A stretch of DNA of 64,000 bases from an uncultured Dehalococcoidia bacterium (GTDB lineage Bacteria; Chloroflexota; Dehalococcoidia; Bin125), in NCBI GenBank assembly GCA_958295515.1, contig CATQGW010000001.1, forward strand, positions 580,923 to 644,922, written 5' to 3'. The position numbers were made by a program, and so were the translations under genes. The notes under the pieces are model-generated. The model was not told where the DNA came from. It did no database searches and worked only from the letters and a program-made list of their open reading frames with translations. This document shows positions 11,836-56,381 of this stretch, piece by piece. Positions within the stretch are counted from its first letter, which is position 1. Every line of letters starts with the position of its first letter.

Positions 11836-13197
11836 ATGATGGACAGCATCACCCTCGAAAATTTCCGCTGCTTCCGCGAACGCCAAACCGCCAGGCTCGC
11901 CCCCCTGACCCTGCTAGTCGGCGAAAACAGCACCGGCAAAACCTCGTTCCTGGCGCTTATCCGAGCACTGGCAGCATTCGCATACACGCAACGCCCCCCC
12001 AACTTCAAGGAGCCGCCGTACGATTTGGGAAGCTTCGACGAAATCGCGCACTATCGCGGCGGCCGAGGTGGACGCGCTGAATCGTTCGAGGCGGCGTTCA
12101 CTGCGCGACAGCTTCGCCGCCGTCGGTCGCAATCGAAAGATTTCTACGAATTCGCCGTCACGTTCGCCGAACGCGGTACCGCGCCTGCTCCGGTCCGCCG
12201 GCGCATAGCTGTAGGCGACGCTTGGGTCGAGGACGCACTGGATGCCGTAAGCGGTTACTCAGTTCGGTTTGGGACCAAAAGAGGCGCATGGGTGGCGACC
12301 GACTCCAATGATCTGCGAACGCCGATCGATCTCGGTGAGCAGATGTACATGTACCTTGCTCTCGATCGGGCGTTGGACCTGGTACCTCTCGACTCACATA
12401 ACCAAGACAGCATCGAGATCAAGCCTGTCGACGGATCGCCAGCGATGAATAGCGACGATCTGACACTACTAGAGCCGATCAGATCATACATTATCCGGTT
12501 GGTTGGTCCCCGACCGTTCGCGAGCGCACCTGTGCGTTCCAAACCGGAACGTACTTATAACCCTGCGCGTCTTGACCGTGACCCTGATGGTGACTATGTG
12601 CCGATGTACCTCGCGGACCTCCGGTGGCAACAGAAAGAAGCATGGGACACGCTGAAGAGCCGCATTGACGAGTTCGGCCGTACAGCTGGCCTCTTCGACG
12701 AACTCTCTATACGCCCGCTGGGAACCAAAGCAAGCGAGCCTTTCCAGGTCCAAGTACGGAAGGGCGACGGAAGCTTGAAAGGCCCTCGTCGCAATCTGCT
12801 GGACGTTGGCTATGGTGTGAGTCAGGTACTGCCTATAGTGACAGAGCTGCTTCGGCCGGACGCCGCAGATCAACACCTGCTCCAACAACCAGAGGTCCAC
12901 CTCCACCCCAGCGCTCAAGCCGCCTTGGGCACGTTGTTCTGCCAAGTCGCCGCCTCCGGTCGGCAACTCATCGTCGAAACGCACAGCGATCACCTGATCG
13001 ACCGCGTGCGGATGGACGTGCGGGACAGAACCACCAGCCTCAAACCCGAAGATGTCTCGCTGCTCTACTTCGAGCGAACCGGCTTGGACGTCTGCATCCA
13101 CTCCCTCCGCTTCGACAAACTGGGCAACGTCCTCAACGCCCCGCCGGGCTATCGCCAGTTCTTCCTCAAAGAGGTCAACAGATCATTGGGCCTCTGA
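11836..13197 (+). CDS. ABC/OLD-type AAA ATPase (AAA_21-like with DUF3696-like C-terminal tail)
   Basis: Walker A GENSTGKTS near the N-terminus. C-terminal ABC-ATPase D-loop/H-loop QLIVETHSDHLIDR. ~60-aa C-terminal extension. Lower GC than flanking genes. Confidence 0.75.
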   Translation: MMDSITLENFRCFRERQTARLAPLTLLVGENSTGKTSFLALIRALAAFAYTQRPPNFKEPPYDLGSFDEIAHYRGGRGGRAESFEAAFTARQLRRRRSQSKDFYEFAVTFAERGTAPAPVRRRIAVGDAWVEDALDAVSGYSVRFGTKRGAWVATDSNDLRTPIDLGEQMYMYLALDRALDLVPLDSHNQDSIEIKPVDGSPAMNSDDLTLLEPIRSYIIRLVGPRPFASAPVRSKPERTYNPARLDRDPDGDYVPMYLADLRWQQKEAWDTLKSRIDEFGRTAGLFDELSIRPLGTKASEPFQVQVRKGDGSLKGPRRNLLDVGYGVSQVLPIVTELLRPDAADQHLLQQPEVHLHPSAQAALGTLFCQVAASGRQLIVETHSDHLIDRVRMDVRDRTTSLKPEDVSLLYFERTGLDVCIHSLRFDKLGNVLNAPPGYRQFFLKEVNRSLGL

Positions 13198-13200
13198 CGA

Positions 13201-13686
13201 ATGTGCGCCATCGTAGACGCCGATAGTTCGGGAGAGATTGCCGCTGTGAACCCGTCAGCTGGCGCTCAAGCGTTCAAAGAGTGGATTGCAGGTGGTCAGT
13301 GTTGCTTGGTCATCGGCGGCAGCCGCCTGCGAAAAGAGCTTGGACGCGGCTTCACCGATCCCGAGCGTGCGAAGCAGACGACCGTCACGGAATGGATTTC
13401 GGGAGTTGCGCTCGCCGGGAAGCTGATCAGCGAAGATGACGCCGAGGTCGACGCCCGCGCTGATCAGATCGAGCAATCGGGATTGTGCGCGTCGAACGAC
13501 TTTCACATCATCGCGCTCGCTCAGGTCGCCGGCGCGCGGATGCTGTATTCCAGAGATGCAGAGTTGCATCAGGACTTCACGAATACCGCGCTTCTGTCCC
13601 AACCTTCCGGCAAGGTGTATCCACGAAACTTGAGCCTGTCGGCGAGCAAGCAGTGGCTCGCCCGCAATCGCAGGTTCTACAGCTGA
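13201..13686 (+). CDS. PIN-like domain protein (putative nuclease partner of the ATPase)
   Basis: 161 aa starting 4 bp after the ATPase stop. N-terminal AIVDADS (β1 with acidic residue). C-terminal SNDFHIIALAQVAGARMLYSRDAELHQDF resembles the PIN/VapC D-x-iaA-A-…-T-D-DF signature. Confidence 0.5.
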   Translation: MCAIVDADSSGEIAAVNPSAGAQAFKEWIAGGQCCLVIGGSRLRKELGRGFTDPERAKQTTVTEWISGVALAGKLISEDDAEVDARADQIEQSGLCASNDFHIIALAQVAGARMLYSRDAELHQDFTNTALLSQPSGKVYPRNLSLSASKQWLARNRRFYS

Positions 13687-18238: not shown

Positions 18239-20236
18239 ATGACTCACCCTCCGCAATGGCGATTCCGTAAAATGTCACCCGCCGAGATCAACCAGGATCC
18301 GGTGCAGGGAGAGTTCTTCACCTCCACGTCTGATCTCGCTGAGCGCCTTGTCCGAGAGTCGATACAAAACTCGCTCGACGCTGCTCTCGGCGATGGTCCG
18401 GTCCGAGTTCGGTTCGCCTTCAGCGGTGCGGAACAGGCTTTGCCCGCTGAGCAAGCCGCACGCTACCTCGATGGCTTGAAGGCGCATCTCGAGGCAGTCG
18501 CGTTGTCGGATGCCGACAAGCCGTCAGTAGATGTCGATCACGAAGACGCTGCGGTTTATGACGCCTACGACTTGGTCGACCAACGGGTGCCAATGACCTA
18601 TTTGGTCGTCGAAGACTTGGGAACAAAGGGACTGACCGGCGACATCAGGAGCAACACCGAGTTCGAGAAAGGAAACCGCTTTTGGGGGTTCTTCCGCAGT
18701 GTCGGCATCTCACCCAACGTCGGCGGGACAGGCGGCTCGTGGGGCCTCGGCAAGTGGGTCTTCCCCGATGTCTCGCAGATCAATGCCTATCTCGGCATCA
18801 CCCGCCGTTCGGATGAGCAACGTGACCTGCTCATGGGCATGGCGATCCTCAAGACGCACCAAATCGACAACAAGAAGTACCCTCCCTACGGTCAGTTCGC
18901 GATTCGCTCTGATGAACAGGACGCCCGCTGGCTTCCATTGCCGATCGACTCCGACGAGGATCCTGACAACATCCTCGACACTGCGATCGACGATTTCCGC
19001 CTCCAGCGGCGCGACAGCTCTGGACTCTCAGTGGTCATCCCTTGGCCAAAAGAAGAACTGAACGCCAACGCGACCGTTCGCGCTGTATTGACGCAGTACT
19101 TCCTGCCGATTGTGTACGGCGATCTTGAAGTCGAGGTCGTCGCCGACGGCGAGACACAGCGAGTTAATCGTGAGTCAATCGTCGATGCGGCGCTCTGTAT
19201 CGACATATCGGAGCGCGACGACGAGTCTGCTCAGTCTTTGGTCAAAGCGATCGACCTTGCGTGCTGGGCAAGAGGTGAGGACGAGGAATCGCTGATTGAC
19301 GTCAAAGCCACGACGAGCCGCGACATTCTGGCAGGACAGGACATCGAATCACTGAGAGAACGCTTCGATCGCGGCGACCGTCTCGGTTTTCGCTTGTCGA
19401 CGAACGTGACTGACCGGAAGACAGGCGAGCCCGTAGTCAACACTTTCCGCGTCTATGTCGAGCAGGACGAGGATTTGACCCACGGCCACGACTATTTCGT
19501 GCGCGGCTACCTCCGCATACCTCACATGGATCACATCGGCTCGTTCCGCGCGCGAGCACTCGTGCTGGTTGATCGAGAGTCGAAGCTGGGCGATCTGCTG
19601 CGGGATGCCGAAGGTCCGGCTCACGTCTCGTGGGATCCTCACGCCGAGCGTCTCAAGAAGCGTTGGATCGGTGGATACGAACGTGTCCAGCAAGTTCGTC
19701 GCGCTGCTCTGCTGTTGCTCGGACCGCTCGCCGAAGTGCCGCGTGAGCGCCTCAAAAACCTACTCGCCGACCTCTTTCCCGCACCGTTGGGCGGAGGCGG
19801 CAATGGCCCACACCCGCCACCACCGCCGCCACCACCGCCACCACCGCCACCTGTAGTCAATCCCATCTCCATCAGTGAACTGAAGGATGGGTTTCGTATA
19901 CGCTCTGATTCGTCGAACCCTGCATCGCAGGCACTCGCTGGCACGAGTTGGCGTGTCGCGTTCGCGTACGATGTAGCGCGCGGCGGGCAGCGTGCCGCTT
20001 TCAACAGCTTTCGACAGGGCGTGAAGCAGGGCTCGCCCGACTTCAGCCTTTTCCGAGGCGCGCTCAGTATCACGTGTGAGGGATGCCTATACAAGATCAG
20101 GTCGGAGAACGAAATTGAGATCACAGTCACGAGGAACGACTTCCATCTCGGCGTACGCGGTCTTGATGCACGGGACGTGATCGTTGACCTACACCAACGA
20201 TCCGACGACGACGACACAGAGGATGATGAAGAATGA
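18239..20236 (+). CDS. GHKL (Bergerat-fold, HATPase_c/MORC-like) ATPase with C-terminal domain and poly-proline linker
   Basis: N-box ESIQNSLDAA, G1 box VEDLGTKGLTGD, G2-like GGTGGSWGLGKW. 665 aa. 13-Pro run. Acidic C-terminus. Lower GC than neighbours. First gene of a 3-gene overlapping operon. Confidence 0.7.
   Translation: MTHPPQWRFRKMSPAEINQDPVQGEFFTSTSDLAERLVRESIQNSLDAALGDGPVRVRFAFSGAEQALPAEQAARYLDGLKAHLEAVALSDADKPSVDVDHEDAAVYDAYDLVDQRVPMTYLVVEDLGTKGLTGDIRSNTEFEKGNRFWGFFRSVGISPNVGGTGGSWGLGKWVFPDVSQINAYLGITRRSDEQRDLLMGMAILKTHQIDNKKYPPYGQFAIRSDEQDARWLPLPIDSDEDPDNILDTAIDDFRLQRRDSSGLSVVIPWPKEELNANATVRAVLTQYFLPIVYGDLEVEVVADGETQRVNRESIVDAALCIDISERDDESAQSLVKAIDLACWARGEDEESLIDVKATTSRDILAGQDIESLRERFDRGDRLGFRLSTNVTDRKTGEPVVNTFRVYVEQDEDLTHGHDYFVRGYLRIPHMDHIGSFRARALVLVDRESKLGDLLRDAEGPAHVSWDPHAERLKKRWIGGYERVQQVRRAALLLLGPLAEVPRERLKNLLADLFPAPLGGGGNGPHPPPPPPPPPPPPPVVNPISISELKDGFRIRSDSSNPASQALAGTSWRVAFAYDVARGGQRAAFNSFRQGVKQGSPDFSLFRGALSITCEGCLYKIRSENEIEITVTRNDFHLGVRGLDARDVIVDLHQRSDDDDTEDDEE
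19814..19852 (+). repeat. CCR trinucleotide (poly-proline-encoding) tract inside GHKL ATPase gene
   Basis: 13 consecutive Pro codons (ccg/cca alternating, final cct), encoding HPPPPPPPPPPPPP between the two halves of the GHKL protein. Confidence 0.8.
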
Positions 20237-21033
20237 TCCGTCGATTTAACCGCACGGGCCGTAGGACGATTGCGCGTCAGCATGCTCAGGTCACACTGCG
20301 CAAACTGAACCCCGAGCAGACTTACTTTGAAATCGCGCTTGATTTGAATTCCTATGGTTTTCCGAAGGACGCGAAGGTTCGCGTCGAAGCTTGGCGTTCG
20401 AATGCCGTACAGCGCTGGGAATTCGGGATCGTTGACGACATCAACCCGCCGACGCGAGGCAATCGCGTCCTGCGCGACGTGCCTGAGACCGCCGCATTCC
20501 GCGTTGCCATTGTGGCGCCAGACGATTCGGGTTTGCTGTTCGGCTTGAGTGGCGACCTTCGTCCACGGCGAGAACTGACCAACGACGGCTCAGAGCCGAT
20601 AGCCGAATCGCTGCTTCACGTCGAGATCGCTAGCGATCTCGGGCAAGAGGTGTGGCGTCTCGATTTCGGAGACGACGAGCTGCCGGTGCTCCAGCTCAAT
20701 GGCTCAATCTCGGGCATCGCGCAGATTGTGGAGCACGACCCGACGTTTCGGTCCCTCGTCATTCCGGAGATTTTCAGAAGCATCTTGCAGCGAGCAATTC
20801 TCGTTACCCGGATCGACCCAGATGATCCTGACTCGAACGCTTGGACCGACTGGCTTGCTTTGGCTAAGAAGCAAGCCCCAAAGGCAGATGTGCCCACACT
20901 GACAGATTTGGCGGACACCGGCGAGCGAGACGCGGCCTTTTCATGGATCGAGATGGTGGTTGGCCGATTCGCGGCTCAAAGGGGCTTTGATGCTGCCACG
21001 ACGTACAGTAAGGCTATGGAGGCAGGGCGATGA
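20233..21033 (+). CDS. hypothetical protein (operon partner 2 of GHKL ATPase)
   Basis: 266-aa ORF. ATG overlaps the upstream stop (ATGA). No motif recognised by eye. Confidence 0.6.
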   Translation: MIRRFNRTGRRTIARQHAQVTLRKLNPEQTYFEIALDLNSYGFPKDAKVRVEAWRSNAVQRWEFGIVDDINPPTRGNRVLRDVPETAAFRVAIVAPDDSGLLFGLSGDLRPRRELTNDGSEPIAESLLHVEIASDLGQEVWRLDFGDDELPVLQLNGSISGIAQIVEHDPTFRSLVIPEIFRSILQRAILVTRIDPDDPDSNAWTDWLALAKKQAPKADVPTLTDLADTGERDAAFSWIEMVVGRFAAQRGFDAATTYSKAMEAGR

Positions 21034-21746
21034 CATACGCCAGAGCACTTACGACAGACGGCATTCGACGAGCTCAGGAGTTCGTCAGGGCGTTGGGCAG
21101 TGACCCGGCCATGCCGCTCACCCCGCCGGATGACATTCTGTTCGATGCTCGATACTCGCGGGAGATCGAGCGAGCACCGAGAGTCGAACATCGCAGTTTC
21201 ACCACACGACGCGAAGCTGCCGAATACTTGGTTTCTCTTTCGCCCCCTCTCGATCAGCGCTCCGTAGATGACTGGCCATTTTGGTCGTGGTTGGGCCTGT
21301 GGCACCTGCCGGACATATTGCACACCGATGAGCGGCGCACTCGCATGTCGAGCGAAGAAGAGACGTTCGTTGTCGACCGAATGGACGGCCGGTCGCGACA
21401 AAGCAGGTACCGGAACTACCTGTGGACATCGTGGCGTCTTTACCAAGCGTTCGGCGAAGAGGCAGCATATCTCCTCGATCTCGACATCATGGAGATCGGA
21501 CAAATCACGCGACGAATCATTAACTCGCCGCGAATCTTCAACTCCGTTGGTGTCGTTCAACTAATTCTACGGCTCTATACGCGGGAGAAAAGGGCGAAGC
21601 GCGGCCGCAGAAACCGCCCTGGTGGGCTGGATCACCTCTTTCGCGTCCTCCCACAGCTCGAACTGACGCACGATGTCTATGGCATGTCGCCCGACGCGCT
21701 GCTGCGCATCTTGCCACCAGAGATCCAAAAGTGGGATGAGCGCTGA
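21030..21746 (+). CDS. hypothetical protein (operon partner 3 of GHKL ATPase)
   Basis: 238-aa ORF. ATG overlaps the upstream stop (ATGA). Basic C-terminal region (REKRAKRGRRNRPGG). Confidence 0.6.
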   Translation: MTYARALTTDGIRRAQEFVRALGSDPAMPLTPPDDILFDARYSREIERAPRVEHRSFTTRREAAEYLVSLSPPLDQRSVDDWPFWSWLGLWHLPDILHTDERRTRMSSEEETFVVDRMDGRSRQSRYRNYLWTSWRLYQAFGEEAAYLLDLDIMEIGQITRRIINSPRIFNSVGVVQLILRLYTREKRAKRGRRNRPGGLDHLFRVLPQLELTHDVYGMSPDALLRILPPEIQKWDER

Positions 21747-22905: not shown

Positions 22906-24050
22906 GCGCCGCCGCCGACGCCGAGCGCCGCATCCGCGCCTTCGAGGAGATGGGCTGGCATCGCACCGGCTGGGAAGCCGACAACCAGGCAGCCGACTGG
23001 CTAATCGCCGAGCTCCAGACCGCCGGCATCGAAGCCCGCGCGCAACCCTTCCGCGCCCCCCGCTGGCACTGGAACAAGGCGGAAGTGCGGGTCGCGGGTC
23101 ACAGGATCATCGGTGAACCCATGAGCGACGGAGGTCCCGCGCCTGGAATGGGCGTAGTGGCCCCGCTTCTCCGCGAACCTCGCCACAACACCATGTCCAT
23201 CATCGTGTGGCAGCCCACGATCGACGATCCGCGTCGTCTCGGTCCTGAAATCTATGACCACCTTGACCATCTGGAGGCGCAGGGTGCGCAAGGCGTAGTG
23301 CTTTTGATGGACGACGAGGACGGATACGGCATCCTGCGCAACGCCGAACGGCCGTGGGATCCCATTCGCCTGCCGGTGCTCCAAATCGCACCGAAAGAGG
23401 CAGGCCCGCTCCTGGACAATGAGGGGGAAACCGCCGGGCTTGTGATCACAGGCCGCCGCGAAGAAGTCCAGGCGCTCAACGTCCTCGCCGAAATCCCCGG
23501 CGCCGACCTCAACGCCGCGCCCGTCACCCTCATGACGCCCAAATCCGGCTGGTTCACCTGCGCCGCCGAGCGCGGCGGCGGCATCGCCGTCTGGCTCGCC
23601 GTCGCCGAACGGATCGCCGCCCAGCGCCCCCGCCGCACTCTCCAACTCGTCGCCAGCAGCGGCCACGAACTGCACCACCTCGGCCTCGATGCCTACCTCG
23701 AATCGCTCGGCGACGCCGCCTCCAAAGTCTCCGCCTGGATCCACCTCGGCGCCGCAATCGGCGCAAAACGCGGCACCCCCAGCCTCGCCGCCTCCGACGA
23801 CGAACTGATGACCATTGCCCAATCCGCCCTCTCCGCCTCCGGCATCGAGCGCGACCCATTCCCCGTCGGACGCTCCGGCTACGGCGAAGCCCGCAACATC
23901 GCCGAAATCGGCGGCCGCTACATCTCCCTACTAGGCGGCCACCCCTACTTCCACAGCCCCCAGGACACCTTCGACAACGCCGTAGACCTCAACCTACTCA
24001 CCCGCCACATCAACGCCGTAGAAACAATGACGCGAGAACTGCTGGCCTGA
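22902..24050 (+). CDS. hypothetical protein, possible M28-like peptidase/hydrolase
   Basis: ATG overlaps the LLM stop (ATGA). Weak resemblance to the M28 metal-binding region (…AERGGGIAVWLAVAERIA…SSGHELHHLG). Function uncertain. Confidence 0.45.
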   Translation: MSAAADAERRIRAFEEMGWHRTGWEADNQAADWLIAELQTAGIEARAQPFRAPRWHWNKAEVRVAGHRIIGEPMSDGGPAPGMGVVAPLLREPRHNTMSIIVWQPTIDDPRRLGPEIYDHLDHLEAQGAQGVVLLMDDEDGYGILRNAERPWDPIRLPVLQIAPKEAGPLLDNEGETAGLVITGRREEVQALNVLAEIPGADLNAAPVTLMTPKSGWFTCAAERGGGIAVWLAVAERIAAQRPRRTLQLVASSGHELHHLGLDAYLESLGDAASKVSAWIHLGAAIGAKRGTPSLAASDDELMTIAQSALSASGIERDPFPVGRSGYGEARNIAEIGGRYISLLGGHPYFHSPQDTFDNAVDLNLLTRHINAVETMTRELLA

Positions 24051-24111
24051 TGCCGCCGGCAGGAGTGACCGAATAGACTGCAAGCGCACCAACGCGAAAG
24101 GCTGCCTCGAA

Positions 24112-26397
24112 GTGAAGAACGCGCCAAAGCCCGAAAATCTGTCGCTGCAGAGCCTGCTCTCGCGCCTCAGCGAGGGACGCTTCGTGATCCCCGACTTCCA
24201 GCGGGAATTCGAGTGGGAGCCCAAAGACATCCTCGAGCTGATGCGCTCCCTCTTCCTCGATTACTACATCGGAAGCTTGCTCCTCTGGCGCGGGCGCAAC
24301 GAGACGTTCGCGGCGCTGGCGTGTAAGCCGCTCGCGGTCTTCGCCGGCGACAACGGAGGCAGTCCGGAGCACATCGTGCTTGACGGGCAGCAGCGCCTCT
24401 CGGCGATGTACTACGCATTCATGGCGCCGTCGGTCCCCGCACCAAACCGGAAGGTCCGGTACTTGTACTTCATCCGCATCGATAAATGGGCGGACGACGA
24501 ACCTGACGAGGCTTTCGTCTACGACTGGACGCGCCGTGGCACAAACCTACTCGACGATCGCGAAGAGCAATTTGCCCGTCAGATGCTCCCACTCGCAACG
24601 ATCGGCAATGCCGGTCGGCGTGGGGTTTGGGACTGGTTCCGCGATTACGAGACATTCTGGGAGGAGAAGCGTGGCGCTGCCGATTCGACAGGTCGCACAG
24701 CAGAGCGCGGTCAAGCTCAGCGGTGCATCGAGCAAGGTAGCGAGTTTGCCGATCACCTTGATGAGATGCTGCGCGAATACCAAATCTCCTACATTGAGCT
24801 TGATCAAGAGCTCGAGATCGATAAGGTCTGCGACACCTTCACACGGATCAACAGCCGCGGCATCCGACTCGACATATTCGACCTGATGAACGCTCTCCTG
24901 CGACCGAAAGACCTCCGACTCAAGGACATGTGGCGAGAGGTTGCGCCTGATCTGGAGTTCATCAGCTCAAGTCGGTCCGATGTCTACGTACTGCAGGTGA
25001 TGTCGATCCTCGCGCAGAACTACTGCTCACCGAAGTACCTGTACCATCTCCTCCCCGGCGAGAAGCGCCGCATTCGCAAGCCGGATGGATCCAGCGCCGA
25101 TCAAGTGCTGGTGCCCGATGCCGAAGACTTTGAGCGCCGTTGGTTGGAAGCCGTGGCGATCATCAAGAGCGGCGTCGCGCGGCTGAGCCATCCTCAAGAC
25201 TTCGGAGCGATCTCCTCAGCCCTCCTCCCGTACGCCTCGATCCTCCCAGCGTTTTGCTCGGTGCTGCACATCGCAAATTCTGCGCCCGACGCTGAGCGAC
25301 TCACGGCTGCACGCAAGGTTCGCGATTGGTACTGGGCGAGCGTGTTCACGAATCGATACTCCGGGGCGGTTGAGTCCACGGCGGCGCGCGATGTCCTTGA
25401 CGTAAGGCAATGGATCAACAACGACGATGCCGTACCAGATGTGATCGCTGCACTTCCCGAACGCATGCGGACACTGGACCTACGAAGCGAAACGCGCCCT
25501 GCGGCATCGGTGTATAAAGGAGTGCTCAACCTGATCATTATGAACGGCGCCCGCGATTGGGCGTCCGACGCGCCACCGCAGCCGGACGACATCGATTCCT
25601 ATCACATCATTCCCAAGTCGTGGGGAAGAGCGAATCGTCTCGGCAAACGGATCGACACCGTTCTGAACCGCGTTCCCCTGTCCTCGGAAACCAATCGGGA
25701 CATCATCGGCAAGCAGCTCCCAAATCAGTACCTACGCGAGTGGATCGACAGAACAGGAGAAGCGTCCGTCCGCGAGACGCTGCGAACTCATCTGATCTCG
25801 GACACGGCATTCGACATTCTGTGCCGCGACCCGTTCGAGAAAGACGACTTCGAAGCATTTCTGTCGGAACGTCAACGAACCATCCAACAGGCGATTGAAG
25901 TGCTGTTGATCAAGGGGCGGCTCGATCTGACTCCGGACCTGAGGGAAATGGATAGGCGCGTTGAGGTCGTTGAGCTCGAACTGCGAAAGCTTGTTGTGGC
26001 TACTCTCAACAGCGACTCACAAAGAGTGCCTCAGAGCGTGCGCGTGAAATGGCAGCCGCGAATCGAAACGATCAAGCGCAAGCAGCCAGGACTCGCAGCC
26101 GACGCATTCGACACCCTGCGAGTGCAGCTGGAGTACGCCGACCTGAGCGAGCTTGGCGAGATCATTCTCAACAAGGCGCTGTGGCTAGACTTCCAACCGG
26201 TGTTCAACGCGAAGCCGCTCGTGCAGAGCCGCTTCGCACAGCTCGGCGAGCTGCGCAATGCGATCCGCCACACCCGCACCGTGACGCCCGTCGTCCAAAA
26301 AGACGGCGAAGCGGCACTGCTGTGGTTCGACCAGGCGCTGGGCATGGCGGGGCTTCGGAGGTCGGACGGAGAGATTCCCGCTCGGGGGCGGGAATGA
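24112..26397 (+). CDS. DUF262 (ParB-like NTPase) + DUF1524 (HNH-like) protein, GmrSD/SspE-like type IV restriction-type enzyme
   Basis: N-terminal IPDFQREFEWE and DGQQRLSAMY (DUF262 hallmark). C-terminal …DDIDSYHIIPKSW… (His-Me/DUF1524-like). 761 aa. Reduced GC. GTG start. Confidence 0.8.
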   Translation: MKNAPKPENLSLQSLLSRLSEGRFVIPDFQREFEWEPKDILELMRSLFLDYYIGSLLLWRGRNETFAALACKPLAVFAGDNGGSPEHIVLDGQQRLSAMYYAFMAPSVPAPNRKVRYLYFIRIDKWADDEPDEAFVYDWTRRGTNLLDDREEQFARQMLPLATIGNAGRRGVWDWFRDYETFWEEKRGAADSTGRTAERGQAQRCIEQGSEFADHLDEMLREYQISYIELDQELEIDKVCDTFTRINSRGIRLDIFDLMNALLRPKDLRLKDMWREVAPDLEFISSSRSDVYVLQVMSILAQNYCSPKYLYHLLPGEKRRIRKPDGSSADQVLVPDAEDFERRWLEAVAIIKSGVARLSHPQDFGAISSALLPYASILPAFCSVLHIANSAPDAERLTAARKVRDWYWASVFTNRYSGAVESTAARDVLDVRQWINNDDAVPDVIAALPERMRTLDLRSETRPAASVYKGVLNLIIMNGARDWASDAPPQPDDIDSYHIIPKSWGRANRLGKRIDTVLNRVPLSSETNRDIIGKQLPNQYLREWIDRTGEASVRETLRTHLISDTAFDILCRDPFEKDDFEAFLSERQRTIQQAIEVLLIKGRLDLTPDLREMDRRVEVVELELRKLVVATLNSDSQRVPQSVRVKWQPRIETIKRKQPGLAADAFDTLRVQLEYADLSELGEIILNKALWLDFQPVFNAKPLVQSRFAQLGELRNAIRHTRTVTPVVQKDGEAALLWFDQALGMAGLRRSDGEIPARGRE

Positions 26398-26440
26398 CGA
26401 GGAAGACCGCCCTTTCCAGCAGGCGCGATACGCTCCCCCT

Positions 26441-28490: not shown

Positions 28491-28925
28491 ATGATGAAGC
28501 TGTCGAGCAAGAGCGACTACGGCATCCGCGCGCTGGTCGACCTCGCCCAGCACGCCGGCGCCGGGCCGATCCCCAGCAGCGAGATCGCGCTGCGCCAGGC
28601 GATCCCCGCCTCGCTCGTCGGCCAGGTGCTCGGACGCCTGCGCACCGCCGGCTTCATCCGCTCCACGCGCGGCGCGCAGGGCGGACACCAACTCGCCGTC
28701 CCCGCCGACGCCATCCGCCTCGATGTCGTCGTCCAGTCCCTCGAAGGCCCCATCTCACCCGGCGCCTGCCTCGACGAAGCGCCGATCGAGCGCTGTACCG
28801 GGGCCGCCGCACAAGTCCGCCTCTGGGCGGATGTGCAGGCGGCCATCCTGGAGGTGCTCAACGGACGCACCGTCGAGGACCTCGCCCAACAACAGGCCGC
28901 GGCCGGCAGCCGCTACCAAATCTGA
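28491..28925 (+). CDS. Rrf2-family transcriptional regulator (IscR/CymR-like)
   Basis: [18 protein letters not shown]… is the canonical Rrf2 wHTH N-terminus. Confidence 0.8.
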
Positions 28926-54022: not shown

Positions 54023-54925
54023 CTAGACTTGCTCGCCCTGGGCGCGGCGGCTGACCAGATCCTCGAAATCGATCTCGATCGGGGTCTCGCGGGCGACGAT
54101 CTGTTCGACGCGGTTGCGCACCACATCGTCCCAGCCGGCGTGAGGGAGGATGTAGCAGCGTTCTTCGACGATCGAGTTGAAGACCAGCTCCGCCACATCG
54201 TCGGGATCCATCCCGCCGCCCAGAATCGCTGCGACCGCCTGCGTCTGCTCATCCGACATCTCGGTGAGCTTCTCGCCGAACTCGGCCGGGCGGTTGCGCT
54301 CGGCCTCCGCGATCTTGGTATTGACGAAGCCGGGGCAGAGCACCGACGCGCCGATCTTCGAGTTGAGCAGCTTGAGCTGGCCGTGCAGTCCCTCGGTCAG
54401 CGTGAGCACGCCGTGCTTGCTCACGCTGTAGGCGCTGCCGCCGGGGATCAGGCCGGCGACCGAGGCGGTATTGACGATGTGCCCCTCCTCACCGTGTCCG
54501 TGCATGTGCGGCATGAACACCTGTAGGCCGTAGAGCACGCCCCAGAAGTTGACGCCCATCACCCAGTCCCAGGTGCTGTCGGGCACCTCCCAGACGGTGC
54601 GCAGGCCGTTGCCTGCGCCCAGCCCCGCGTCTTCGCGGCTGGTCACGCCGGCGTTGTTGCAGAGGATGTGGATGTTGCCGAACTCGGCGATGGTGCGGTC
54701 GCGCAAGTCTTCCAGCGCTTCGCGGCGCATCGTGTTGACGGTCACGCCGAGCACGTTGCGCTCCTCCTGCTGAAGCTGCTGCACCTGCACATCAAGCGCG
54801 TCCTGCTCGATGTCGGCCAGCACGACATTCATGCCTTCGGCGGCGAAGCGGCGCGCGAAGGCCAAGCCCATGCCCGACGCCGCGCCCGTGACCACCGCCG
54901 TCTTACCCGAGAACTCACGCATCAT
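54023..54925 (-). CDS. SDR family oxidoreductase
   Basis: TGAASGMG Rossmann, NNAG, and the YSVSKHG catalytic Y-x3-K. Confidence 0.8.
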   Translation of the reverse strand: MMREFSGKTAVVTGAASGMGLAFARRFAAEGMNVVLADIEQDALDVQVQQLQQEERNVLGVTVNTMRREALEDLRDRTIAEFGNIHILCNNAGVTSREDAGLGAGNGLRTVWEVPDSTWDWVMGVNFWGVLYGLQVFMPHMHGHGEEGHIVNTASVAGLIPGGSAYSVSKHGVLTLTEGLHGQLKLLNSKIGASVLCPGFVNTKIAEAERNRPAEFGEKLTEMSDEQTQAVAAILGGGMDPDDVAELVFNSIVEERCYILPHAGWDDVVRNRVEQIVARETPIEIDFEDLVSRRAQGEQV

Positions 54926-55014
54926 TCTGCTCCTTCCAGCAGTTCTGGTCATCCTGATGATACGTTCCCGCCACGCCCGTTTGGCTCCCCCTGGCAGAAA
55001 CCTTTGCGTAAGTC

Positions 55015-55240
55015 CCGCTCGTCATTCCAGACTCGACTCCTCGTCATTCGCGGCGCGACCTCTCGTCATTCCTGGCTTGACCAGGAATCCCGCCGTGTCG
55101 CTGGCATCCTGTCCGGGCACGGCGAGATTCCCGCGTTCGCGGGAATGACGGAGTATTCGCGGGAATGACGGAGTATTCGTGGGAATGACGGAGCGTTCGT
55201 GGGAATGACGGAGCATTCGCGGGAATGACGGATTCGGGGG
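55015..55240. repeat. tandem/inverted short-repeat array with GGAATGACG core
   Basis: Five abutting 20-bp direct repeats (GCGGGAATGACGGAGTATTC and variants) at 55139-55238. Three inverted-orientation copies (CGTCATTCC…) at ~55021-55090 with 22-bp phasing. Embedded palindromes ATTCCTGG-N5-CCAGGAAT and TTCCCGCG-TT-CGCGGGAA. Confidence 0.85.
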
Positions 55241-55305
55241 GGTGCCAGGGTTACGCAACAGGCTCGTCAAGGGGCAGCAGGAAGGGTCTCCGGGGTCGGT
55301 CGCCC

Positions 55306-56210
55306 CTACACCAGCTCCCCGGCCGCCCGACGACGCATCATCTCCTCCAAATCCAGCTCGATCCGCAGCGGCGCGCCGCGCGCCAGCACCTGCTCCGTGC
55401 GGCCTCGCACGATCTCGTCCAGCCCCGTATGGGGCAGGACGTAGCAGCGTTGTTCGACAATCGCCTCCAGCACCAACTCCGCCACATCCTCCGGCGACAT
55501 CGCACCCGAGAACGCCGCCGACAGCATCGTCCGCTGCTCCTCGCCCAGCTCCAGCGCCGCGCCGAACTCATCGGGGCGGTTGCGCTCCGCCTCCATAATC
55601 TTGGTCTGCACCACGCCGGGACAGAGCGCCGAAGCGCTCAGCTTTGAGCCGCGCGCTTCCAGGTCCTGGTAAAGATTCTCGGTCAGTGCCAGAACTGCAT
55701 GCTTGGAAACGCCGTAAGCGCCGCCGCCCGGCATCAGCCCGGCCAGCGAGGCCGTGTTGACGATGTGCCCCTCCTCGCCGTGCGCCAGCATGTGCGGCAC
55801 GAACGCTTGCAGCCCATACAGGACGCCGCGAAAGTTCACGCCCATCACCCAGTCCCATGTGCTGTCGGGAATCTCCCAGACCCCGCGCTACCCGGCCGGC
55901 AGCCCCATCGTGTCTTCGAGGCTGGCCACCCCTGCGTTGTTGCAAAGGATGTGGATGTTGCCGAAGCGCTCGATCGTGCGCTCGCGCAGGTCTTCCAGCG
56001 TTTCGCGGCGCATCGTGTTCACGATCACCCCGAGCACGTTGCGCTCCTCCTGCTGGAGCTGCTGCACCTGCGCGTCGAGCGCCTCCTGCTCGATATCGGC
56101 CAGCACCACGTTCATCCCCTCCGCCGCAAAGCGGCGGGCGAAGGCCAATCCCATACCCGAAGCCGCCCCCGTCACCACCGCCGTCTTGCCTGAGAACTCG
56201 CGCATCATTC
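55306..56210 (-). pseudogene. SDR family oxidoreductase paralog interrupted by in-frame TAG
   Basis: N-terminal (MMREFSGKTAVVTGAASGMG…NNAGVASLEDTMGLPAG) and C-terminal (…WDWVMGVNFRGVLYGLQ…) parts are in the same frame, separated by an amber codon near 55880. Otherwise highly similar to 54023-54925. Confidence 0.5.
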
Positions 56211-56381
56211 CGCTCCCCTCATCTGTTCGACGCTGGGCCGAATGATAGAAACTCCCACGCGCCAGAGAATTCCCCTCTCCCCCCTCACAAAGGGGGGATG
56301 CAGAGGCAGCCTTGCCCCACGCACACGGGGAAGGGTTCGGCTGCCGTCGCGCGGGGATGGAGATCGTGCAGAGGACCCCGC

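Follow-up and report, generated by a model that had tools for sequence, protein, structure and literature searches.

We analysed a 64,000-nucleotide stretch of DNA (the window) from an uncultured Dehalococcoidia bacterium (contig CATQGW010000001.1, positions 580,923 to 644,922). Our subject is a cluster of short repeats that lies within a 380-bp spacer between two minus-strand genes, SDR-A and SDR-B. SDR-A (54023–54925) encodes a short-chain dehydrogenase (SDR), lies downstream of the cluster, and has a ribosome binding site (RBS), GGAAGGAG, and the typical TGxxxGxG motif. SDR-B (55306–56208) is a tandem paralogue located upstream of the cluster. Because the two genes share only 76.6% DNA identity and their upstream regions do not align, we conclude that the duplication is old and that the spacer was not part of it. 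A preliminary description of this DNA had placed the repeats exactly at the junction of a gene duplication; they do lie between tandem paralogues, but the array is not a by-product of the duplication, given how far the two genes have diverged and that one strain has both of them without the array.

Two repeat arrays of opposite orientation

Using Tandem Repeats Finder, we found a period-20 array at 55136–55232 (4.8 copies, 93% matches) that is the top-scoring tandem repeat of the window, with a score of 159 as compared to 74 for the runner-up. Units 1 and 2 (55136–55155 and 55156–55175) are both TTCGCGGGAATGACGGAGTA; unit 3 (55176–55195) is TTCGTGGGAATGACGGAGCG, unit 4 (55196–55215) is TTCGTGGGAATGACGGAGCA and unit 5 (55216–55235) is TTCGCGGGAATGACGGATTC. 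A second array, with a period of 22 bp, is present at 55018–55082. Here there are three inverted copies spaced 22 bp apart (55015–55081), with cores CGTCATTCC at 55020, CGTCATTCG at 55042 and CGTCATTCC at 55064, and a repeat search confirmed that these three CGTCATTC(C/G) cores are oriented opposite to the five GGAATGACG cores of the 20-bp array (55142 to 55222). GGAATGACG occurs nine times in the window as compared to 0.86 expected, a number that was reached by 0 of 100 shuffles. The occurrence at 20757 is taken as chance, since it lies within a coding region and has no hairpin.

Both the dense 20-bp tandem array and the three reverse-orientation copies with 22-bp spacing had been noticed in the preliminary description, and our repeat analysis bears them out. 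The variant at position 2 of the unit had been given as G/T; in the same register it is C/T (GCGGG vs GTGGG). The judgement that the array is not CRISPR-like also holds, as units are joined head-to-tail without spacers, and a CRISPR reading is ruled out by the lack of unique spacers between units.

The cluster is built from CGTC-tagged hairpins and half-copies of them

Repetitive extragenic palindromes (REPs) of the CGTC-tagged kind have an unpaired CGTC (or TGTC/CCTC) and stems of 8–9 bp that nearly always begin with A and T (PMC3733652). Their loops are 4 nt long in family 1 and 5 nt in families 2–4, and they have 3-nt tails, mostly CCA (PMC3733652). They occur in many dispersed, mostly extragenic copies, mainly as inverted 'HH' doublets, and no transposase is associated with them (PMC3733652). 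The CGTC-1 REP of Neisseria is the repeat known as dRS3 (PMC3733652; Di Nocera, De Gregorio and Rocco 2013), which has the consensus ATTCCC-N8-GGGAAT, a 20-bp inverted repeat (PMC1797815; Bentley et al. 2007).

In the cluster there are two perfect hairpins, ATTCCTGG-cttga-CCAGGAAT at 55068–55088 and ATTCCCGC-gttc-GCGGGAAT at 55127–55146. Read on its own strand, each consists of CGTC, an 8-bp stem beginning with AT, a loop of 4 or 5 nt, the returning stem and a 3-nt tail. REP-1 (55064–55091, plus strand) has CGTC at 55064–55067, stem ATTCCTGG at 55068–55075, loop CTTGA at 55076–55080, stem CCAGGAAT at 55081–55088 and tail CCC, and its 8-bp stem and 5-nt loop give it the geometry of the CGTC-2 type. 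REP-2 (55124–55150, minus strand) reads CGTC ATTCCCGC GAAC GCGGGAAT CTC and, with its 8-bp stem and 4-nt loop, has the geometry of CGTC-1. The plus strand at 55127–55146, ATTCCC-GCGTTCGC-GGGAAT (= ATTCCCGCGTTCGCGGGAAT), fits the dRS3 consensus exactly. The whole window has only three perfect 8-bp hairpins that begin with AT. Their loops are 4, 5 and 6 nt long, and all three carry the tag: an unpaired CGTC precedes the hairpins at 55068 (plus strand), 55146 (minus strand) and 26395 (minus strand). The stem pair ATTCCTGG/CCAGGAAT is used once and ATTCCCGC/GCGGGAAT twice, each time as a perfect 8-bp stem that begins with A and T. Since three of three such hairpins are tagged and their loops measure 4, 5 and 6 nt, the published definition of CGTC REPs (PMC3733652) fits the repeats of the window.

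REP-1 and REP-2 form an inverted doublet with their tags pointing outward, the 'HH dimer' arrangement usual for CGTC REPs, and are separated by a 32-bp spacer (55092–55123). Additional pairing of 14 nt between 55084–55097 and 55118–55131 (93% complementary) extends the doublet into a composite long hairpin like those of REPINs, the REP doublets of Pseudomonas. As single-stranded DNA, the 96-nt doublet core folds at –28.7 kcal/mol (z = –4.67).

Outside REP-2 there are four 20-bp half-REPs (55151–55235, minus strand) that read CGTC ATTCCC(G/A)C GAA(C/T) nnTC and are missing the distal arm, so that the 'five 20-mers' are REP-2 plus four half-REP units. Outside REP-1 there are two 22-bp half-REPs (55015–55063, plus strand; CGTCATTCC at 55020 and CGTCATTCG at 55042) that have the tag, the tag-side arm and a loop-like ...GAC, again without the distal arm. 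The 20-mer is exactly reproduced by tandem duplication of four flank bases, tag, arm and loop, and the 22-mers can be derived likewise; it follows that both arrays stop at the hairpin apex. The two palindromes of the preliminary description are thus present and perfect, but rather than standing apart between the arrays, each forms the complete, innermost unit of one of them.

The cluster is bracketed by two outer arms, which form a 28-nt inverted pair that is 71% complementary and hold the module GAGACCTTTGCGTAA / TTACGCAAAGGTCTC. The left arm (54984–55011) has the module as GAAACCTTTGCGTAA, related to the consensus GAGACCTTTGCGTAA, and its partner on the right (55251–55278) reads TTACGCAAC-AGGCTCGTCAAGGGG. 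The left-arm module also follows REPs at five loci in metagenome-assembled genomes (MAGs) of Chloroflexota (L012, L032, L043, L044, L062). At Chloroflexota loci, REPs sit in mosaics with other small modules, among them the TTACGCAAAGGTCTC module found at the two edges of the window cluster. Taken together, these data indicate that the region is very probably a mosaic cluster of CGTC-tagged REPs (CGTC-1 and CGTC-2, the Neisseria dRS3 type) between two co-oriented SDR genes on a Dehalococcoidia-like Chloroflexota chromosome.

The repeat belongs to a family found in many bacterial phyla

To place the repeat among other genomes, we scanned one genome per species (596 Gb in total) for the 18-mer TTCGNGGGAATGACGGAG; all counts given below refer to the matches listed. 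We found at least 119 loci in many phyla, mostly in MAGs of Dehalococcoidia and other Chloroflexota. The remaining taxa among the listed matches include Binatia, Alpha-, Beta-, Gamma- and Deltaproteobacteria, Nitrospirota and Acidimicrobiia, and also Myxococcota, Planctomycetota, Ignavibacteria, Saccharibacteria and Endomicrobiia. Sphingobium chlorophenolicum, for which CGTC families are listed in the REP survey (PMC3733652), is among the exact matches. By our own estimate, which assumes equal base frequencies, a 17-base pattern is expected ~70 times by chance in 596 Gb. Nevertheless, the listed matches are not chance, because the complementary arm, which is absent from the search pattern, follows with a 4-nt loop in 93 of 131 matches, and 71 of these 93 arm-bearing matches also have the TGG (= CCA) tail. 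The REP consensus across the listed loci is TGGATTCCCGC-YTTC-GCGGGAATGACGGAG. One Dehalococcoidia MAG (CBDHCU01) has at least 11 exact matches to the 18-mer.

Chained copies also occur elsewhere: two or more tag-side copies follow one another in 27 of the 131 listed matches, with periods of 18–27 nt. At a locus in a Ramlibacter MAG (L120), there are six half-units, a hairpin pair and two half-units with a period of 21 bp, the same layout as in the window. When we compared the cluster with a plasmid collection by blastn, the sole matches were repeats of N. gonorrhoeae (91% identity over 46 nt; Neisseria chromosomes filed as plasmids), and no iteron-like relatives were found there. In the gonococcal match, a further copy of the tag-side arm, in direct orientation, comes after the hairpin. 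The motif is hence not unique to this locus, a possibility weighed in the preliminary description: there is a third complete copy in the window at 26371–26399, and there are further copies in many genomes. A full-text literature search for the string GGGAATGACG returned unrelated primer sequences only.

All-against-all BLASTP clustering of all open reading frames (ORFs) in the 119 listed loci yielded no recurrent REP-adjacent gene family. Since no gene family lies consistently beside the REP in these loci, there is no candidate transposase.

Two variants came to light among the listed loci. In eight Dehalococcoidia MAG loci (L006, L011, L046, L054, L067, L091, L113, L117), a GC-rich hairpin (e.g. 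CCCCCGACTGCTCGGGGG) is nested in the loop of the REP and is followed by a conserved GGTGGGGGATTTGGG, with many repeats per genome. In the Ramlibacter MAG, at L120:3190-3300, a complete REP follows a (CCGCCT)n run and apparently lies within a long opposite-strand ORF or on its edge; judging from the sequence, it may be an intragenic REP insertion.

The arrays differ between closely related strains

To determine how stable the cluster is, we compared the window with four long contigs from the same metagenome in which SDR-A and SDR-B have 98.1–98.6% DNA identity to the window genes, and with a fifth contig (L123) for which the comparison covers SDR-A only. The window has five 20-mers and three 22-mers. 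There are six and two in L124, four and four in L126, and two and two in L121. In L123 there are four 22-mers, and the contig ends before the 20-mer array. In L125 there are none of either kind. The arrays differ between strains by whole units only, and the units also show point differences.

In alignments with L125, the missing DNA is an element of ~280 bp (55003–55286, edges uncertain by ~3 nt). The L125 spacer is 102 bp long, both SDR paralogues are kept, and the outer half of one inverted arm is retained. We found no direct repeat or target-site duplication at the 55003 and 55286 junctions in these alignments. The ~100 bp directly upstream of the SDR-A start, RBS included, are near-identical in all six aligned sequences. 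Loci with an SDR-A that is 86–90% identical have neither SDR-B nor any REP. Because copy number varies and the element is absent from both L125 and the more distant loci, we conclude that it is dispensable and evolves much faster than its flanks. These comparisons show that the element is dispensable, fast-changing DNA and not a conserved array of binding sites.

Close homologues of SDR-A are found in Chloroflexota MAGs, with near-identical copies on ~3.0-Mb circular long-read contigs from one metagenome, sample ERZ19489113. The ~3.0-Mb contigs of this sample include s21.ptg000022c, s321.ptg000357c, s510.ptg000605c and s23.ptg000024l. In SDR-B of the window, there is an in-frame TAG at 55888–55890 (minus strand) where four other strains have CAG (Gln); as read from the sequence, this would mean that SDR-B has recently become a pseudogene through a nonsense mutation specific to the strain, or else that the base was misread in sequencing.

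A sister REP upstream of lgt marks a breakpoint

The third complete REP (26371–26399, minus strand) reads CGTC ATTCCCGC CCCCGA GCGGGAAT CTC, with a 6-nt loop. It lies upstream of lgt and overlaps the stop codon of a low-GC gene of the GmrSD type. In another strain (L130:3925-4005), ResB is followed by lgt and there is no REP, and in a third (L131:3855-4005) a 65-bp 'half-unit + REP' is present at the same point with a 5-bp direct repeat, CCGCC, at its ends. The match between the window and L131 starts at the left arm of the REP and runs rightwards; the window DNA to the left is unrelated. The window loop TCGGGG is the reverse complement of the L131 loop CCCCGA. Because it is within the REP that similarity to the window sets in, and because the loop is inverted, we interpret the sister REP as the breakpoint of a strain-specific region. 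The sister REP is thus both a presence/absence polymorphism and a strain-specific breakpoint, which recalls the role proposed for dRS3 and arrays of neisserial intergenic mosaic elements (NIMEs) in Neisseria (PMC1797815).

A GmrSD_N restriction-endonuclease domain is found in the 761-aa product of the gene to the left (24112–26397, ~59% GC as compared to ~68% for the window). Since other strains have ResB at this position in its place, the gene probably belongs to a variable defence island. We found no second REP at the left edge of this island (23780–24140).

Genomic setting and probable transcription of the cluster

The neighbours of the SDR pair include further SDRs, CoA-transferases, a ferredoxin, purL/purQ, a 7TM-HD protein and a cyclase. 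Farther away are lgt, a 3'-phosphoadenosine 5'-phosphosulphate (PAPS) reductase, an Rrf2 regulator in a sulphur/cysteine cluster, enoyl-CoA hydratases and an amidase. Among the 19 ORFs that we scanned between 42.7 and 63.9 kb (from ~12 kb upstream to ~9 kb downstream of the array), we found no Rep, Par, helix-turn-helix, Rrf2 or regulator gene. The setting is one of chromosomal metabolism and housekeeping, with no hint of a plasmid, an origin or a local regulator.

The RNA of the spacer from SDR-B to SDR-A folds at –163.5 kcal/mol (z = –3.6). A search of the whole window with Rfam at gathering thresholds found no RNA family, and a riboswitch or small RNA reading was rejected for want of an Rfam match. 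A consensus scan of 54800–55450 detected no promoter- or terminator-like site. Given this result and the shared orientation of the two genes, transcription probably runs through the cluster as part of the spacer.

Upstream of SDR-B there is also a palindromic module, CCCCCC-tcacaaa-GGGGGG, in TTCCCCTCTCCCCCCTCACAAAGGGGGGATG (56270–56300), which resembles CCCTCCCCCATCAAGGGGGAGGGG beside REPs at two Chloroflexota loci (L015, L116).

Comparison with known repeat systems

The cluster is a known kind of element, similar to the arrays of bacterial interspersed mosaic elements (BIMEs) or NIMEs, in a phylum for which the 2013 survey lists no CGTC repeats. It resembles CGTC-1 and CGTC-2 REPs in its tag, its AT-initiated 8-bp stems, its 4- and 5-nt loops, its 3-nt tails, its extragenic position between co-oriented ORFs and its 'HH' doublet, and the exact 18-mer is common to the window and to a species of that survey, S. 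chlorophenolicum. It differs from them in that Chloroflexota are outside the five phyla listed in 2013 (PMC3733652), in having CCC/CTC in place of CCA tails, and in the tandem half-REP arrays that flank the doublet. With dRS3 and NIMEs of Neisseria, it shares the exact consensus at 55127–55146, the 91% identity over 46 nt to gonococcal copies with an extra tag-side arm, a strain-variable repeat number and, at its sister copy, a position on the boundary of a variable region. In contrast, dRS3 pairs of NIMEs enclose RS elements of 50–150 bp that belong to many families, whereas the window doublet has a 32-bp spacer and 20–22-bp half-sites, and we saw neither an Nf-type phage nor a Piv-type recombinase. 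The REP/BIME elements of E. coli and the REPINs of Pseudomonas, which are GTAG-tagged and associated with REP-associated tyrosine transposases (RAYTs), are likewise tagged hairpins whose inverted doublets form a longer hairpin, and they occur as intergenic clusters reiterated in tandem in strain-dependent copy number; however, the tag of the window is CGTC, and no RAYT has been reported for CGTC REPs (PMC3733652).

Several observations weigh against the identification as a CGTC-REP cluster. The 64 kb of the window have only three complete and six half copies, located at two intergenic sites, and the tails (CCC, CTC, CTC) are not the usual CCA of the family. In the 2013 survey, head-to-tail arrangements of CGTC REPs were negligible and clusters were rare outside Neisseria and Wolbachia (PMC3733652), so the tandem half-REP arrays lie outside the published description. 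The exact two-unit 20-bp tandem pattern had no match in JGI metagenomes. As regards expression, no promoter- or terminator-like site was detected in the scan of 54800–55450, so any effect of the cluster there is conjectural. The organization as half-REP arrays flanking an inverted doublet is absent from that survey, yet it recurs in distant bacteria.

Alternative explanations

The preliminary description had suggested two identities for the cluster, a MITE-like small mobile element and an iteron/operator array. Part of the former stands: there is a dispersed palindromic repeat family, with a second site in the window and copies in many genomes. The cluster is, however, not a classical miniature inverted-repeat transposable element (MITE), as its outer 28-nt arms are only 71% complementary and do not coincide with the boundaries of the L125 indel, and there is no target-site duplication. 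A broader version, which is compatible with REP identity, holds that the ~280-bp block (55003–55286) is a composite non-autonomous mobile element, similar to a MITE, a REPIN or a palindrome-associated transposable element (PATE), that was inserted whole, so that L125 would represent the empty site; an enzyme encoded elsewhere that recognizes CGTC-tagged hairpins would move it. The block is cleanly present or absent among strains that are ~98% identical, it is bracketed by the imperfect inverted arms with the TTACGCAAAGGTCTC module that accompanies Chloroflexota REPs, and at the lgt locus strains differ in having or lacking the 65-bp 'half-unit + REP', which has a 5-bp direct repeat on either side. 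However, the SDR locus lacks a target-site duplication, the indel boundaries do not match the arms (L125 keeps an outer half-arm), and deletion of an unstable quasi-palindrome fits these data equally well. The CCGCC repeat at lgt would fit a slippage deletion at microhomology just as well, no transposase-like family recurs beside REPs in the 119 listed loci, and no dedicated transposase has been reported for CGTC REPs (PMC3733652). We regard insertion as a composite element as possible but rather unlikely. Somewhat less likely still, in our view, is that the cluster acts mainly as a recombination substrate, as NIME arrays do in Neisseria, through a site-specific recombinase (e.g. of the IS110/Piv type) or through breaks provoked by the hairpins; either would act at the dRS3-like hairpins and favour exchange and the insertion of foreign sequence beside them. 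The sister REP at 26371–26399 is the exact end of the window match, with GmrSD in place of ResB and the loop inverted with respect to L131; in Neisseria, dRS3 repeats are targets for filamentous prophage integration and NIME arrays are strain-variable (PMC1797815), and REPs are targets of insertion sequences in several genera (PMC3733652). This breakpoint is a single one, though, and at the SDR locus the flanks are syntenic and ~98% identical in all strains, with only the repeat content changing; we also saw no recombinase gene in the annotated parts of the window.

The iteron/operator identity is not supported. It supposes that the direct repeats (motif GGGAATGACGG) are iterons or operator half-sites that are bound cooperatively by a replication initiator or a TetR/Rrf2-type factor and control SDR-A. 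Like plasmid and chromosomal iterons, the repeats are direct, ~20 bp long and spaced by about two helical turns (20- and 22-bp periods), and the array lies upstream of SDR-A. Unlike iterons, it has no origin context, it is not conserved between strains (0 to 6 copies, with none in L125 or at orthologous promoters), and it is part of a dispersed repeat family whose sequence occurs in unrelated contexts in many phyla. Conservation is limited to the ~100 bp nearest SDR-A, and no Rep, Par or regulator gene was found among the 19 scanned ORFs. A check for a TetR/Rrf2 regulator, which had been advised, does find an Rrf2 gene in the window (28491–28925), but it is 26 kb away from the array in a conserved sulphur/cysteine cluster. 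We therefore consider binding-site function very improbable. Even less credible is that no family stands behind the array and that it arose by a single slippage event or through faulty assembly. The missing JGI match for the exact 20-bp tandem pattern would be expected in that case, but arrays with differing copy numbers are present in four independent long contigs besides the window (the 20-bp array in three of the four), the unit is one half of a REP dispersed across phyla, and the same layout occurs in the Ramlibacter MAG.

Proposed origin and behaviour of the arrays

For the CGTC-REP cluster, we propose that a segment made up of a short flank, the CGTC tag, the tag-side arm and the loop was duplicated in tandem in situ, outward from each hairpin. 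Such duplication would leave a 20-bp array on one side of the inverted doublet and a 22-bp array on the other. Because both arrays end at the hairpin apex, the hairpin itself may promote the first duplication. Once formed, the arrays could expand and contract by slipped-strand mispairing or unequal recombination, a mechanism suggested only by the whole-unit differences in copy number.

Transcribed as part of the spacer, the cluster would fold very stably and could modulate transcriptional read-through or mRNA decay, which would be its most likely local effect. Effects of this kind have been proposed for REPs generally (PMC3733652). The family may also act as a hot spot for recombination or insertion, since the sister copy marks a recombination breakpoint.

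A more speculative view, to which we give little weight, is that the outward 'tag + tag-side arm' arrays are the footprint of a hairpin-recognizing enzyme, hypothetically a nicking HUH-type or an IS110/Piv-type enzyme. If it nicked the DNA repeatedly, with re-synthesis each time, such an enzyme would account both for the spread of REPs across phyla and for the growth of the arrays. Chloroflexota, Ramlibacter and Neisseria all have outward arrays beside inverted CGTC-REP doublets, and the hairpin apex is invariably where these arrays break off. If this view were true, the hairpin enzyme would be the 'missing transposase' of CGTC REPs.

The identification as REPs calls for annotating the array as a known class of selfish or structural DNA instead of a regulatory site or an origin. 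REPs of the dRS3/CGTC type have been described mainly from Alphaproteobacteria and Neisseria; here we find them to be common in uncultured Dehalococcoidia-like Chloroflexota and in many other phyla, with a 27-nt REP consensus that is almost identical. In this strain-resolved long-read metagenome, CGTC REPs are among the fastest-changing sites, as seen in the gain and loss of units, the presence or absence of the whole element and the breakpoint of an island. They are therefore useful as strain markers, and their variation between strains is natural material for asking how CGTC REPs spread.

Other features of the window

The Rrf2-family regulator at 28491–28925 lies in a conserved cluster with lgt and genes for a glutaredoxin-like protein, PAPS reductase, cysteine synthase and ThiS-ThiF. 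At 11836–13686 there is a low-GC gene pair. The first gene encodes a 453-aa ATPase of the AAA_15/AAA_21 (AbiEii-like) kind, and the product of the second (161 aa) matches a PIN domain weakly (20.8 bits vs the Pfam cut-off of 23.6); from its sequence, the pair looks like an inserted defence or toxin-antitoxin module. Finally, a low-GC block (~58–61% GC) at 18239–21746 comprises three ORFs of 665, 266 and 238 aa, none with a Pfam match, and holds the GGAATGACG at 20757.

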